Origin: Pseudomonadales bacterium
GTDB lineage: Bacteria; Pseudomonadota; Gammaproteobacteria; Pseudomonadales; UBA7434
Length of the DNA: 64,000 nucleotides
Reading direction: 5' to 3'
Assembly (NCBI GenBank): GCA_965659815.1
Contig: CBFHXO010000002.1
Location: forward strand, 794 to 64,793
The position numbers and the translations under genes are program-made. Below the pieces are notes generated by a model. That model saw only the letters and a list, made by a program, of their open reading frames with translations, did not search any database and was not told where the DNA came from. This document shows positions 22,620 to 30,022 of the stretch, piece after piece; positions within the stretch are counted from its first letter, which is position 1; each line of letters opens with the position of its first letter.

Positions 22620-22946
22620 TTAAAGCGAGTTGTCGACAAACTCTTCGAGCTGGGTTTTAGACAGTGCGCCAACCTTGGTTGCGTGGGCGTTACCACCTTT
22701 AAACACCATCAGGGTTGGAATGCCGCGAATACCGTACTTTTGTGCGGCTTCTTTATTGGCATCGACGTCAACCTTAACCACTTTGATTTTGCCTTCGTAG
22801 TTTTCGGCCACTTCTTCAAGCACGGGTGCAATCATTTTGCAGGGTCCACACCACTCGGCCCAGTAATCGACCAGGACAGGTACGTCGGATTTGATAACTT
22901 CTTCTTCAAACGAGGCATCGGTGACATGAACGATGGCGTTACTCAT
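22620..22946 (-). CDS. trxA: Thioredoxin 1
   Basis: 108 aa with the WCGPCK active site. Colinear with E. coli TrxA. Confidence 0.97.
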
Positions 22947-23070: not shown

Positions 23071-23361
23071 CAATGGCGGCCGCAAACTTGCCCGGATACC
23101 TCAATGGGGCTTAATTGGCGGGTTTCAAGGGGGCGGCCGCACTGATTGGCCGATTTTAAGCAAAACAGTGCTTAATGGGTTTGTGCTGATTGCTGCTATT
23201 GAACCAATTGGGTCTGCGCCGATCCTAGTTCGCCTGTGCAATCAATCGAACCCGGTTATGAGCTTATTCGCATTTGGCAGGATAGGGGCAATAGGGCATG
23301 TGTGTTAAGGTTTGTTGGCACAGCACTTGAGCTAACAGTCTAACGGGAGTCATTAGCGGCT

Positions 23362-25506
23362 ATGAATAGCCCTCAGCGTCTTAGAATTTTCTTGCTTGTT
23401 CTTGTAGCGGCAGCGATTGCGGCATTTTTCTATTTCGATATTGGTCAGTATTTTTCGCTGGATTATTTCTCGGCACAAAAACAGGCGCTCGATGCGTATA
23501 TTGCCGAGCACTTTGTGGCAGGTTCGCTGATTTACTTTTGCATCTATGTCGTGGTGTTTGCGCTGGCATTGCCGGCAGGGGCAATTCTGACACTGGCAGG
23601 TGGTGCGTTATTTGGTCTTGGCTGGGGCATTGTGTTGGTGTCGTTTGCCAGCACGCTGGGCTCAACACTGGCGTTTTTGGCGGCCCGTTTTGTTGCCCGC
23701 GACTGGGTTAACCAGCGCTTTGCCGGTAAGCTCGACACCATAAACCAGGGCGTGGCAAAAGACGGTGCATTTTATTTGCTAACCCTGCGATTGGTGCCGA
23801 TTTTTCCCCCTGCGCTAATTAATCTGGCCATGGGCCTGTCGTCAATGAAAACCTGGACGTTTTACTGGGTGAGCCAGCTGGGGATGTTGGCCGGTACCGC
23901 CGTGTATGTAAACGCAGGTACCGAGCTTGCCAATATCGATATTAACCAGGGCATTTTATCGCCCGGTTTGATTTTTGCCTTTGTGTTGTTGGGGGTTTTT
24001 CCGCTGGTGGCCAAGCGTGTACTTGGCTTGTTGCAGGTGCGGCGGGTTTATCGTAATTATCCAAAGCCAAAAAGTTTCGACAATAACCTGGTAGTGCTGG
24101 GTGCAGGCTCGGGTGGTTTGGTCACCGCTTATATCGCGGCAATGGTCAAAGCTGAGGTGACATTAATTGAAAAGCATCAAATGGGGGGTGATTGTTTAAA
24201 TACCGGCTGTGTGCCGAGTAAGGCGCTACTGCGTTCGGCAAAAATCGCGCACTATATCGATCGTGCCGAAACGTTTGGTATTAAAGATGCCAGCGCCAGG
24301 GTGGATTTTGCCGCGGTCATGAACCGGGTACAGCAAGCAATTAACACTATTGAGCCGCATGACTCTGTTGAGCGCTATACCGAATTGGGCGTGAACTGCG
24401 TCAGTGGTGAGGCAAGCATTGTTAGCCCCTATGAGGTTAAAGTGGGCGAGCGCGTAATTACCACGCAAAACATCGTGATCGCCACCGGTGGCAGGCCCGC
24501 GGTTCCGGCAATCAAAGGTATTCAGCAAGTGCCGTTTTATACCTCCGATACCATTTGGAACCTGCATGCACAACCTGCGCATTTATTGGTGATTGGAGCA
24601 GGCCCTATTGGCTGTGAGTTGGCGCAGGCATTTTCGCGACTGGGCAGTGAGGTGACTATTGTGAGTCGCGGCGAACACATACTGCCAAAAGAAGATCCCG
24701 ATGTTAGCGAAGTAGTGCTTAAGCAGATGCGCAGTGAAGGTGTTAATGTTGCGCTGGCGCATTACCCCATTGAAATTACACAGCGCGATCAGGACTATGA
24801 AATGCTGGCCGAGCATCTGGGGAGTCAACAGCGGTTTCGCTTTACACATTTGCTAGTGGCAACGGGCAGGCGTGCCAATACCGAATCCTTAGGTCTCGAT
24901 GCGCTGGGTATTGAGTTGTCTGACGATGGCACCATCGCCGTTGATGACTATTTAAGAACGCGCTTTCCCAATATTTATGCGGTTGGTGATGTGGCAGGCC
25001 CTTATCAGTTTACTCATGCCGCCTCGCATCAGGCCTGGTATGCTGCGGTGAATGCGCTGTTTGGCCGGTTCAAATCGTTTAAAGCCGATTACTCGGTGAT
25101 TCCCTGGGCGACATTTACCGACCCGGAAGTTGCGCGAGTAGGTTTGAGCGAAACTGAGGCGCGTGAAAAAGGTATTGATTTTGATGTGACGCGTTATGAT
25201 TTGGACGATCTGGACCGAGCGATAGCCGATGGCGAAACGCAGGGCTTTGTTAAAGTGATTACGCCCAAGGGCAAAGATAAAATTTTGGGTGCGACGATTG
25301 TTGGCTACCATGCCGGCGAGTTAATTAATGAGTTTATTGCCACGATGAAACGCGGCGGGCGATTAAACGATATTCTGAGTACTATTCATATTTACCCGAC
25401 CTTGGGCGAGGCCAATAAATTTGCTGCCGGGGAGTGGAAGAAAGCGCGTAAGCCAGAAAAATTACTGGCCTATGTGCAGCGCTTTCATCGCTGGAGTCGT
25501 AGCTGA
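23362..25506 (+). CDS. Fusion protein: N-terminal DedA/TVP38-TMEM64 membrane domain plus C-terminal class-I pyridine-nucleotide-disulfide oxidoreductase
   Basis: 714 aa. Residues 1 to about 225 are polytopic with the LRLVPIFPP DedA-type motif. Residues from about 240 have GAGSGG, the redox CxxxxC (GGDCLNTGCVPSK), a second GxGxxG (GAGPIGCE) and the C-terminal HIYPTLGE dimerisation/active-site motif. Confidence 0.9.
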   Translation: MNSPQRLRIFLLVLVAAAIAAFFYFDIGQYFSLDYFSAQKQALDAYIAEHFVAGSLIYFCIYVVVFALALPAGAILTLAGGALFGLGWGIVLVSFASTLGSTLAFLAARFVARDWVNQRFAGKLDTINQGVAKDGAFYLLTLRLVPIFPPALINLAMGLSSMKTWTFYWVSQLGMLAGTAVYVNAGTELANIDINQGILSPGLIFAFVLLGVFPLVAKRVLGLLQVRRVYRNYPKPKSFDNNLVVLGAGSGGLVTAYIAAMVKAEVTLIEKHQMGGDCLNTGCVPSKALLRSAKIAHYIDRAETFGIKDASARVDFAAVMNRVQQAINTIEPHDSVERYTELGVNCVSGEASIVSPYEVKVGERVITTQNIVIATGGRPAVPAIKGIQQVPFYTSDTIWNLHAQPAHLLVIGAGPIGCELAQAFSRLGSEVTIVSRGEHILPKEDPDVSEVVLKQMRSEGVNVALAHYPIEITQRDQDYEMLAEHLGSQQRFRFTHLLVATGRRANTESLGLDALGIELSDDGTIAVDDYLRTRFPNIYAVGDVAGPYQFTHAASHQAWYAAVNALFGRFKSFKADYSVIPWATFTDPEVARVGLSETEAREKGIDFDVTRYDLDDLDRAIADGETQGFVKVITPKGKDKILGATIVGYHAGELINEFIATMKRGGRLNDILSTIHIYPTLGEANKFAAGEWKKARKPEKLLAYVQRFHRWSRS

Positions 25507-26483: not shown

Positions 26484-26945
26484 TTAGTTGACCTCTATAC
26501 GCCTGACTTTTTCCTCTACAGGTTCTCGCGTGGCGAGCTTGATGGTTAAAATGCCGTTGTCCAGCGATGCGGCGATAGACTCTTCGTCGATTTCCTCGCC
26601 CAATGTAAAGCTGCGTTTTACTGTGCCACGATAGCGTTCGCGCCGCAGTTCGACAACGTTATCGCCGGTTTCGGCTGCGCTTACTTCGGCGTCAACTTTT
26701 AGTACGCCGTCTTCAATATCAATGCTTATGGCTTCTTTGCTGATACCCGGAACTTCAAGTTCAATCGTATAGCCGCTATCGGTTTGGTAGATATCGGCCG
26801 GTGTGGCTGTTACGGTTTTTTGTTTTGTTTGCTTTGTTCGTGCAGCAAATGGAAAAAACAAATTATCAAAAGGCTTGTCTGAAAATATCTCGTCGGCTAG
26901 ATGATAGCTGTGGCCAAAGGGTCGAGCGGTTGATAGGTAGTTCAT
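26484..26945 (-). CDS. Hsp20/alpha-crystallin family small heat-shock protein
   Basis: Alpha-crystallin domain (ADIYQTDSGYTIELEVPGISKEAISIDIEDGVLKV...SLDNGILTI). Start taken at the ATG at 26945, which has a GGGAG SD. The longer 27029 start would overlap its own promoter. Confidence 0.9.
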   Translation of the reverse strand: MNYLSTARPFGHSYHLADEIFSDKPFDNLFFPFAARTKQTKQKTVTATPADIYQTDSGYTIELEVPGISKEAISIDIEDGVLKVDAEVSAAETGDNVVELRRERYRGTVKRSFTLGEEIDEESIAASLDNGILTIKLATREPVEEKVRRIEVN

Positions 26946-27002
26946 AATCTTACTCCCGTTATATGATTCGTTTAGCGATGTTGCTCTTTGCGTCGAATAA
27001 TA

Positions 27003-27030
27003 ATTTTGGGATGCAATAAATAATTTCAAG
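27003..27030 (-). promoter_or_regulatory. Sigma32-type promoter for hsp20
   Basis: The minus strand reads CTTGAAA-N13-CCCAAAAT (consensus CTTGAAA-N13-15-CCCCATNT), about 55 nt upstream of the hsp20 ATG. Confidence 0.6.
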
Positions 27031-27074
27031 CGATAGATTGGATTTTTAGTGTATAAAAATTTGAATAGCGGGGG

Positions 27075-27101
27075 TTGAAACGAAAATTCCAGCCCCCATA
27101 T
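27075..27101 (+). promoter_or_regulatory. Orphan sigma32-type promoter facing an ORF-poor region
   Basis: The plus strand reads TTGAAA (27075-27080)-N13-CCCCATAT (27094-27101), a near-perfect consensus. It is divergent from the hsp20 promoter 45 bp away. Confidence 0.6.
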
Positions 27102-27204
27102 CCTAATAGATGCTAAGATAAAGCACGTGCGTATTAAATAAGAATGTACAGCCAGCGTTTGCTTTTAAACAGGCTGGCATTAATCTTGCGCAGTGGTTGT
27201 TGCT

Positions 27205-27246
27205 AAATTGATAACAATCCAAATTGATAACGATATAAATTGATGG
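27205..27246. repeat. Three direct repeats with 16-bp phasing (AAATTGATAAC / AAATTGATAAC / AAATTGATGG)
   Basis: Read directly, with repeats starting at 27205, 27221 and 27237. The third repeat overlaps the ATG at 27243. Confidence 0.55.
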
Positions 27247-28092
27247 CGAATTGCCATTGCGCGACTACGTTGGTGATGCGTTTAACTGTTACGGTTGGGT
27301 GCTTTGAGAAGTGTGGAGTTTATATCTATAAAGATTTGTGGATTGGTACGGAAATTTTACTTTTTTTACTTGTGTAAAATAAATTAACCAAAGAAAAGCA
27401 AAAACAACGCACCGCCGTTTTATTGCTTGTGATGACTACGCTGCTTTTAGTGATCGTCGTTATCTGATTTATACCTAAGTCCTTGACATCACGAAATCGC
27501 ATTGCGTTCCAGTACCGAGTTTCCGTCCCTGCACCTGTCGTGACCCTGTAATAGTTTGGCTCATTGCTTTTAACCTCTAACCGAGATTTGAGGGGTCGCT
27601 TCGAGTAGGCTATCCGGATTTTTCATTTGCCATTGGTCTTGGTTTATCGCCTGCTTTTGCCAATGTCGCGTGATATTCAAATCTAAAGCGGGTTTGTATT
27701 TTAAAAAAAGTAAAGCTCTTGCCGATCTGAAAAAAACGGATAGCGGTGTGTTAGAAAAATAGTCGGTACTGATAAGTCAATAGATTTTCAGATATCGAAT
27801 TGTACGCGGTGGTCAGTTATGGGCAACTTTGCTGCTTGATATAGCTTTCGTCTGATCTCCGTGATTAAACGGCGGCAAGTTTACGGCATTCTTTTTTAAG
27901 CAAGAGAAAGGTTGTTTTTCTTGGCTGTCGAAAAAAGTAACTGCCCAGCACAGTATCCCGTGCAGCCAACCCTGCAAACAATCTAGAAAAATACAAAAAC
28001 GCCCGACTACTCAACAGAACACCCCCCCCCTCCCATGCGAATCCTAAAAAAAAGCCTCATTCACCCAAAAAATCGTGTAGCATCGCCTCCCA

Positions 28093-28953
28093 ATGTTACC
28101 TATCCGTCCTCAATTAATTGTCGTTGCCATCACCGCCATTAGCACCATGGCGCTGGTGCCCGTACTAGTGAGCAGTATTGGCACCAACGAAGTAACCATT
28201 GGTATAGCGCGTGTCATAATCGCCTGCGCGGTCTTAACGCCGCTATTAATCCGTCGCCAGTATTTTAAGCAGCTCAAAGCACGTGAGTGGTTAATCATGC
28301 TCGCCATCGGCGTGGTATTTGGCATCCACTGGCTCACTTATTTTTACGCCATTAAACATACTACCCCGTCACTCGGCGCCCTGTCCCTTTCTACCTACGG
28401 CATCCATATGCTGTGGATTAATGCATTAATACAATCCAAGCGACCCTCCCAATCCGATACCTTGGCCATCGCACTGTGCTTTGTTGGTTGTATTATTGTC
28501 ACGCCCTCGCTAGACCTGGCTAACGATGTGACCTTTGGCTTTGCCGTGGGTGTTTTTAGTGGGCTGTTGTACGCGTGCCTTCCCTTTATGCACCAGCGCA
28601 TAGCATACTTGCCCACGGCCTTGCGCAGTTGGGCACAATTTGGTTTTGCCGGATTATTTTTTATGCTGTTTTGGCCGCAAACCCACTGGCAGTTAGACAG
28701 CGCCGATTGGTCGCGACTGCTGGCATTGGGGGTGGTTTGTACACTGGTGGCGCATACGCTATGGGTCAAAGCCACGACCGAACTACCCGCCGTGGTAGCC
28801 AGCGCCTGCCACTATCTCTATATTCCTATTGCAATGGCGCTGAGTTATTACTTTATGAATGAAGCCATAACAACAAACAAGGTGGTTGGTGCAATACTGA
28901 TTGTTGGCGCCTGCCTGTTGGGCATACTGCTGCCGGCATTACGTCGTCGGTAA
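28093..28953 (+). CDS. EamA/DMT superfamily transporter
   Basis: 286 aa with about 10 TM helices in two EamA-like halves. Confidence 0.85.
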   Translation: MLPIRPQLIVVAITAISTMALVPVLVSSIGTNEVTIGIARVIIACAVLTPLLIRRQYFKQLKAREWLIMLAIGVVFGIHWLTYFYAIKHTTPSLGALSLSTYGIHMLWINALIQSKRPSQSDTLAIALCFVGCIIVTPSLDLANDVTFGFAVGVFSGLLYACLPFMHQRIAYLPTALRSWAQFGFAGLFFMLFWPQTHWQLDSADWSRLLALGVVCTLVAHTLWVKATTELPAVVASACHYLYIPIAMALSYYFMNEAITTNKVVGAILIVGACLLGILLPALRRR

Positions 28954-28975
28954 GTGCCTGGATTTAAAGCTGGGT

Positions 28976-30022
28976 TTAACAACAATTGACCGGATCAATT
29001 GCGTTGTTAGTTTTGGCAAAGGGTACTGGTGTGCCACAGCCTTCAAAAATGCCAAAGTGCTTATCCCAATTGCCGATAAACTCAAAGTGCGGTTTAAAAC
29101 GCGACTCGTGTAGCATGAGCCAGGTGTTGCCACATACCGGGAACACTTTACCGGTTGGCATGCAGTGATGACTATCCAGGCAAAATGATTCTGGCAGGTG
29201 TTCAATACTGCCTTTATAAATTACGGCCTGGCCGTAGTCTTCACATGCCGGTTCTAGCTGGTCAATTTTAAATAGCCGATAGGTTGCCGAATAAAAATTA
29301 ATATGCCCAATCAGAGCTTCAATATCTGGGTTTTCTATACCTAGCGGGCGGTCGTTGACCAGGCGCGGGTCGAGAAAGCCATTGCGCTTTGCCAGCTGGA
29401 TAAAATCGTTCCAGTACAGTGCACCACTTAGGCATTCACCGTACAGCAACGGATTTTGTACCAAGGTTTGCGGTATGCGACGGTCAGCATAAACATCCGA
29501 AAAATACATTTCGCCGCCAGGTTTTAATAGTCGGTAGGCTTGTTCTAGCACGGCGTTTTTATCTTCGGATAGATTAATTACGCAGTTGGAAACAATAATA
29601 TCGAAACTGTTATCGTCAAAATCCAGTTGATCGAGTTTTTCGATATAGCCGTGATAAAAATCAATATTGGCGCGCTGATAGCCAAAGCTTTCGGTGTGGT
29701 ATTGAATATGTTGCCTGGCAACCGCCAATTGTTCTTCAGTCATATCGACGCCGGCAACAAAGCCGTGTTCGCCGACCAGCGACGATAAAACGTAGGCATC
29801 GCGGCCTGAGCCACTGCCTAGGTCGAGTATGCGCAGGCCGTCGAGTAACTCGGGTGCAACCAGGCCGCAGCCATAGTATTTCATCATGACTTCGTCATGA
29901 ATCTTGCTAAGAATCGCTTTGATATGCTCGGGCGGCGTTTCAAGCATACAGCAGGCATCGGTTTGCAGGTCGTCAGAGCTTGCGAGGGTTTTGCCGTAAT
30001 AATCTTTTACTTGTTCGAGCAT
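28976..30022 (-). CDS. arsM: Arsenite S-adenosylmethionine methyltransferase-like protein
   Basis: 348 aa. The N-terminus YYGKTLASSDDLQTDACC...YYGCG, the SAM motif ILDLGSGSGRD and conserved downstream Cys residues (SNCVINL, YGECLSG) fit ArsM. Confidence 0.8.
   Translation of the reverse strand: MLEQVKDYYGKTLASSDDLQTDACCMLETPPEHIKAILSKIHDEVMMKYYGCGLVAPELLDGLRILDLGSGSGRDAYVLSSLVGEHGFVAGVDMTEEQLAVARQHIQYHTESFGYQRANIDFYHGYIEKLDQLDFDDNSFDIIVSNCVINLSEDKNAVLEQAYRLLKPGGEMYFSDVYADRRIPQTLVQNPLLYGECLSGALYWNDFIQLAKRNGFLDPRLVNDRPLGIENPDIEALIGHINFYSATYRLFKIDQLEPACEDYGQAVIYKGSIEHLPESFCLDSHHCMPTGKVFPVCGNTWLMLHESRFKPHFEFIGNWDKHFGIFEGCGTPVPFAKTNNAIDPVNCC

Follow-up and report, generated by a model that had tools for sequence, protein, structure and literature searches.

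A conserved divergent pair of sigma-32-type promoters at a marine gammaproteobacterial hsp20 locus, one arm of which lacks an adjacent gene

What does a consensus heat-shock promoter transcribe when no gene stands next to it? In the window, the whole 64-kb (64,000-nucleotide) stretch of DNA analysed here, two sigma-32-type promoters lie back to back beside hsp20. The first, CTTGAAA-N13-CCCAAAAT at 27003–27030 on the minus strand, faces hsp20 (26484–26945, minus strand), an ORF with the ribosome-binding site GGGAG that encodes a 153-aa small heat-shock protein (sHSP); its Pfam HSP20 assignment was precomputed on the identical protein. The second, GTTGAAA-N13-CCCCATAT at 27074–27101, faces the opposite way, and the −35 hexamers of the two are separated by 45 bp. 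This plus-strand element is composed of TTGAAA (27075–27080), a 13-nt spacer and CCCCATAT (27094–27101), with a predicted transcription start at ~27108. The original prediction placed both motifs correctly, fitting the minus-strand one to hsp20 and calling its plus-strand neighbor 45 bp away the better match. It was also right that the latter is directed into about 1 kb without an ORF of at least 60 aa. Within the 991-bp, AT-rich non-coding spacer (27102–28092), the longest minus-strand ORFs have 58, 54 and 49 aa and the longest plus-strand ORF has 45 aa; GC content there is 37–44%, compared with ~50% in the adjoining genes. The description of a promoter without a gene holds for the adjacent gene, which is absent, but not for the strand as a whole. 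The first plus-strand gene downstream encodes a 286-aa EamA/DMT-family transporter (28093–28953; Pfam EamA). The spacer is a putative long leader or a putative template of a non-coding RNA.

The plus-strand element matches the definition of a sigma-32 promoter exactly at 27075–27101, namely a −35 TTGAAA and a −10 CCCCATnT 13–15 nt apart, the E. coli-type consensus summarised in PMC9866376. Searching the window for TTGAAA-N13-CCCCATNT with 0 mismatches returned this element as its only match, where 100 shuffles gave an expectation of 0.00. Allowing up to one mismatch brought the count to two, against 0.07 expected. The second of these, CCCCCTTGAAA-N13-CCCCATTG at 23102–23128 (minus strand), is a classical sigma-32-type promoter ~155 bp upstream of a thioredoxin gene (22620–22946, minus strand), a sign that the E. 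coli-type consensus is in use in this organism. It is itself divergent from a gene encoding a VTT-domain/pyridine-nucleotide-disulfide oxidoreductase fusion (23362–25506). Against the 13-base core, the motif on the hsp20 side has two mismatches; that tolerance gives five matches in the window against 2.2 expected, so the motif alone is at chance level. Its position, ~50 nt upstream of the hsp20 ATG (26945), and its conservation in relatives validate it as the predicted hsp20 promoter. Small heat-shock protein genes are classic RpoH targets.

Direct searches with hsp20 returned only same-species sequences (L002–L007) and one 47%-identical sHSP (L008). The closest relatives, reached by exact-protein look-ups or as 94–96% relatives (L002–L007 and L009), are ~99% identical in DNA and therefore have no footprinting power. 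A scan of genome contigs with hsp20 gave just one unrelated Sulfurovum sHSP. Scanning metagenome contigs with an sHSP alignment gave 80 distant sHSP loci, at no more than 43% identity and without common synteny, among which a single sigma-32 promoter of the ordinary kind was seen in L039 alone. Syntenic loci were obtained via homologues of the neighboring SAM-dependent (arsenite-type) methyltransferase (28976–30022, minus strand). With this anchor, the order methyltransferase–(EamA)–hsp20–SlyX was found in L006, L008, L010, L011 and L012, and the informative promoter comparison is limited to four independent lineages. L010 (methyltransferase 84%) has the methyltransferase gene, then EamA and a 143-aa SnoaL_2-like gene, both on the opposite strand, then 260 bp, hsp20 and SlyX. 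L012 and L008 (80%) have methyltransferase, 243 bp, hsp20 and SlyX, and L011 (79%) has the same genes with an interval of 278 bp. In L109 (72%), hsp20 is absent and the methyltransferase gene directly adjoins SlyX, which implies stepwise insertion, first of hsp20 and later of EamA. Homologues of the flanking genes carry the source names Halieaceae and Cellvibrionaceae.

The back-to-back layout is kept in four related lineages with the methyltransferase–hsp20–SlyX neighborhood and, in ungapped alignments, in every lineage bearing hsp20. The divergent element reads gcgggggTTGAAA-N13-CCCCATAT in the window, tgcgggcTTGAAA-N13-CCTCATCT in L010 (with CTTGAAA at −35), cgggggcTTGAAA-N13-CCCCATTA in L012 and L008, and tagaccTTGAAA-N13-CCTTAAGT in L011. 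Its −35 TTGAAA is present in all five lineages at a constant spacing of 13 nt, and its −10 is CCCCAT in three lineages, CCTCAT in L010 and CCTTAA in L011. The original prediction would have been undermined by −10 and −35 elements that were not conserved in relatives; the −35 is invariant and the −10 is kept except in L011. The sequence between the hexamers has diverged (~5 of 13 positions identical between the window and L008), and constant hexamers at constant spacing around a diverged spacer are the pattern expected of a promoter. On the hsp20 side, homologous elements of the form TTGAAA/TTGATT-N13-CCC(A/C)A.AT occur in L010, L011, L008 and L012, and the paired −35 hexamers are 45, 37, 58 and 49 bp apart across the lineages. 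In the ~428 kb of fetched loci, about five matches with up to one mismatch fall outside the homologous sites (given also as roughly one per 140 kb), and given this rarity, chance does not explain the recurrence 37–58 bp from each hsp20 promoter. Between L008 and L012, the hexamers and the G-run upstream of them show no changes, compared with 3 of 13 in the N13 spacer, ~14% in the flanks and 13% at third codon positions. By our own estimate this constraint beyond the flanks is marginal (P ~0.05) and suggestive only. Together, we tentatively take the plus-strand element to be a real, inherited promoter of the sigma-32 (RpoH) type, a reading to which we give somewhat less than an even chance; its use by sigma-32, its start site and the extent of read-through we infer from the sequence.

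The plus-strand promoter also sits inside a hairpin, a feature overlooked in the original prediction. In the structure (27055–27107, minus strand), G5 at 27070–27074 pairs with C5 at 27094–27098, so that the promoter overlaps the G5...C5 segment (27070–27098). Read on the minus strand, a 17-bp interrupted stem is followed by AAAUUUUUAU, which is terminator-like. The fold has a predicted energy of −19.4 kcal/mol (z = −3.5; none of 200 shuffles equally stable), giving it the stable GC-rich stem-loop of an intrinsic terminator. Among terminator-like sites in the spacer, a lenient scan ranked it first by strength; a strict scan did not call it. The G-run/C-run hairpin is also present in L008 and L012, where it begins 17 nt past the methyltransferase stop codon in the orientation fit to end the methyltransferase mRNA. 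The G-run upstream of the −35 is kept in four of five lineages, and the thioredoxin promoter has a C-run there. That a G-run outside the sigma-32 consensus is kept so widely suggests that the hairpin may be selected itself.

These observations raise an alternative explanation, in which the hairpin is the selected feature and the resemblance to a sigma-32 promoter is secondary or non-functional. The structure would then be a minus-strand terminator or insulator shielding the hsp20 promoter from upstream transcription, and in the ancestor it would have ended the methyltransferase mRNA, the arrangement in L008 and L012. The tail in the window is AAAUUUUUAU when the stem is extended; in L008 and L012 the U-run lies 13–18 nt from the stem, which is not the arrangement of a canonical terminator. 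In the window no co-directional gene ends just upstream of the hairpin for ~1.9 kb. TTGAAA is invariant even though it falls in the loop in L008 and L012 and partly in the stem in the window, and in L010 the hairpin has shrunk to a weak 4 bp while the −35, the −10 and a downstream gene persist. It is also very unlikely that chance would place an exact 13-base sigma-32 core within a hairpin. We consider this explanation quite unlikely. The promoter and hairpin roles are not mutually exclusive.

If the element is a promoter, what does it serve? The original prediction had called for a search of relatives for a gene at this position, and L010 has one. There, ~125 nt separate the promoter from the GTG start codon of the downstream SnoaL_2-like gene (143 aa, ribosome-binding site AGGAG, Pfam E = 2e-6), and EamA begins 54 bp after that gene. 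The window EamA is 64% identical to its counterpart in L010, so the two loci share the EamA arm. The putative transcription unit downstream differs between lineages, comprising SnoaL_2 and EamA in L010, EamA after 991 bp of non-coding DNA in the window, and nothing in L008 and L012. On this comparison, the orphan element is an ordinary inherited, putative promoter with its first gene missing and not a new kind of element.

A mechanism consistent with these features can be proposed. The sigma-32 promoter and that of hsp20 would have been passed down as a divergent pair. In L010, the nearest distinct relative, it would transcribe a two-gene unit, the SnoaL_2-like protein followed by the EamA transporter. 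The window has no SnoaL-like gene, and ~1 kb of non-coding DNA separates the promoter from EamA. Its likeliest present output would be a heat-inducible transcript from ~27108, with the spacer as a ~985-nt leader, continuing into EamA unless stopped by Rho. We favor, at a confidence a little short of even, the reading that this sigma-32 promoter has lost its proximal gene and that transcription now starts at ~27108 and proceeds through the spacer towards EamA. Its product is best read either as an EamA transcript with a long leader or as a non-coding RNA.

Among the three options put forward originally, namely a non-coding RNA, a very small protein and the fossil of a lost heat-shock gene, gene loss comes closest to the comparative evidence, although EamA remaining downstream departs from it. 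A further alternative is a decaying relic, in which a formerly functional promoter persists unmutated after loss of the SnoaL-like gene and has no present role. The downstream gene has left no remnant in the window, and L011, which has no gene on the divergent side and a −10 decayed to CCTTAA, shows that decay does occur without one. However, the lack of any SnoaL gene trace in the spacer means that a loss, if any, is old, and the promoter is nonetheless still a perfect match. A near-perfect copy also stands in the independent L008/L012 lineage. We regard a relic without function as improbable.

Whether transcription initiated at ~27108 would reach EamA depends on the spacer. An untranslated leader of 985 nt is normally a target of Rho. 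The stretch 27900–28090 is C-rich and G-poor (GC skew −0.29) and resembles a Rho loading site; together with the untranslated length, this makes read-through to EamA uncertain. A standard scan found no strict plus-strand intrinsic terminator between 27101 and 28093, and a simple, standard scan of the same interval found no further plus-strand sigma-70-like promoter. EamA homologues in other contexts (62–68% identity) have short upstream regions and lack a sigma-32 motif, which argues that EamA is not intrinsically a heat-shock gene; we rejected intrinsic RpoH control of EamA on this basis. The window EamA may have a weak promoter of its own. In two homologues from unrelated contexts (L097:3470–3500 and L099:3250–3280), an TCTGTAGTCT-like motif lies ~12 nt before the ATG, and the window has TCGTGTAGCAT at 28068–28092. 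Upstream of EamA in L097, L099 and the window there is no obvious ribosome-binding site, and the TCTGTAGTCT-like motif may act as a proximal promoter, which would make the leader very short.

The alternative to read-through is that an active promoter makes a non-coding RNA ending within the spacer. It would be either a ~75-nt small RNA or a longer, Rho-terminated RNA, and its counterpart in L008 and L012 would be antisense to the methyltransferase gene at the 3′ end of that gene. Function would then reside in the RNA or in the act of divergent transcription. In both L008 and L012 a near-perfect copy of the promoter points, in antisense orientation, into the final codons of the methyltransferase gene with no gene downstream, which suggests a role independent of a protein-coding target. 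The unchanged hexamers and G-run between those two loci point the same way, with the marginal significance noted above, as does the retention of a perfect consensus in the window although the adjacent gene is absent. The short form would require the candidate hairpin at 27152–27187 (plus strand, −12.6 kcal/mol) with its U-containing tail UUAAUCUU, which would end a plus-strand RNA at ~75 nt. This terminator is weak, being found in the lenient scan and not called by the standard one, and the fold of 27105–27200 is not better than shuffles (z = −0.63).

Other evidence from the spacer also counts against a non-coding RNA. No Rfam family reached its gathering score in 26900–28150, and the best matches at E ≤ 10 (E 0.2–5) were to eukaryotic miRNA and snoRNA models, far under threshold and best regarded as noise. 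A structured RNA in the spacer was rejected, as z-scores from sliding-window folds were unremarkable except at the promoter hairpin. Downstream of the promoter no sequence is alignable between lineages, so there is no conserved RNA product. We rate the non-coding RNA option, favored by the L008 and L012 copies, as unlikely.

The small-protein option is disfavored: no small ORF with a ribosome-binding site was found near the plus-strand promoter. A 20-aa ORF (27144–27206) was rejected as it has no such site, the 45-aa plus-strand ORF because a 40-bp indel breaks it in L006 and L007, and a 29-aa minus-strand ORF (27564–27475) because of an in-frame stop in the same two sequences. The origin of the spacer was also considered. 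Similarity searches against the other fetched loci, the rest of the window, plasmids and phages found nothing, and six-frame translations had no Pfam match at E ≤ 1. A SnoaL_2 pseudogene was rejected, as the best tblastn match with the L010 gene in a 1.3-kb target had E = 0.47 and no Pfam match accompanied it. A mobile element or repeat was likewise rejected, in the absence of terminal repeats, of other copies in the window or the fetched loci, and of plasmid or phage similarity.

Several further features of the locus vary between strains. A 16-bp tandem repeat, AAATTGATAACNNNNN at 27205–27252, has two units in L006 and L007, three in the window and four in L002; it could be a variable-number repeat or a set of reiterated protein-binding sites. 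Two short-read contigs, L003 and L004, are broken at this repeat or immediately ahead of it. L006 and L007 carry a 40-bp insertion relative to the window at ~27302. Just upstream of EamA, a poly-C tract at 28018–28030 differs between strains (CACCCCCCCCCTCCC vs CAACCTCCCCCTCCC). EamA and the methyltransferase gene are convergent, with a 22-bp gap in the window (28953–28976) and a 4-bp overlap in L010 (5041–5044), and no terminator-like hairpin was found between them.

On the hsp20 side, the sHSP of the sister strains (L006 and L007, P0002) has 159 aa against 153 aa in the window. The difference is one additional PKQTKQ unit, which sits in a short lysine/glutamine/threonine repeat of the N-terminal arm. 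An RNA thermometer in the window hsp20 5′UTR was rejected, its fold being no better than that of shuffles. The hsp20 5′UTRs of L008 (4975–5091) and L012 (5168–5284) have three differences in ~150 nt, whereas third codon positions in the flanking genes differ by 13%. This suggests that the L008/L012 leader is constrained, possibly as an RNA thermometer; the window leader is much shorter.

One further possibility combines the two overlapping elements. G5-TTGAAA-N13-C5AT may be a conserved dual module. On one strand, the hairpin would end transcription coming in towards the hsp20 promoter or insulate the promoter from it. The opposite strand would carry a strong RpoH promoter with a non-coding product, in the window an RNA from the spacer and in L008 and L012 one antisense to the methyltransferase 3′ end. 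Its firing would tune the heat induction of hsp20, through the RNA or through coupling by divergent transcription or supercoiling. We hold this to be doubtful, with only a small chance of being correct.

To return to the favored reading, a sigma-32 promoter that has lost its proximal gene, an active promoter would predict that this uncultured marine gammaproteobacterium makes a transcript inducible by heat. Such activity would place a DMT/EamA transporter under RpoH control via an unusually long leader, or yield a non-coding heat-shock RNA. The case would show a strong alternative-sigma promoter outliving the gene it once served. It also offers a compact natural instance in which a promoter on one strand overlaps a hairpin on the other. 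Nothing in these findings conflicts with how the heat-shock response is now understood.

Comparison with known systems places the element among familiar ones. It shares with the E. coli-type sigma-32 (RpoH) promoters of ibpA, dnaK and groES the −35 TTGAAA, the 13-nt spacer and the −10 CCCCATnT, and its partner likewise serves a small heat-shock protein gene. It differs from them in having a G-run (GCGGGGG) upstream of the −35, where the classical extended consensus has a C-rich tract, in lacking a gene within ~1 kb and in overlapping a stable hairpin. As in other divergent bacterial promoter pairs, the two promoters face outward and share a sigma factor; they lie 37–58 bp apart and are conserved as a unit across lineages, and in L010 each has its own gene. 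Unlike such pairs, one arm has no adjacent gene in this genome, and no shared regulator site was identified; coupling of the two arms, for example via supercoiling, is speculation. RpoH-dependent small RNAs of alphaproteobacteria also have a heat- or stress-sigma promoter ahead of non-coding DNA. They belong to a different bacterial class and have no sequence relationship to this locus, which, by comparison, shows no conserved RNA sequence or structure and no clear terminator. As judged from these likenesses, the element is a further putative example of divergent heat-shock promoters, one of them orphaned or heading a long leader, with the overlapping hairpin as its one curious feature.
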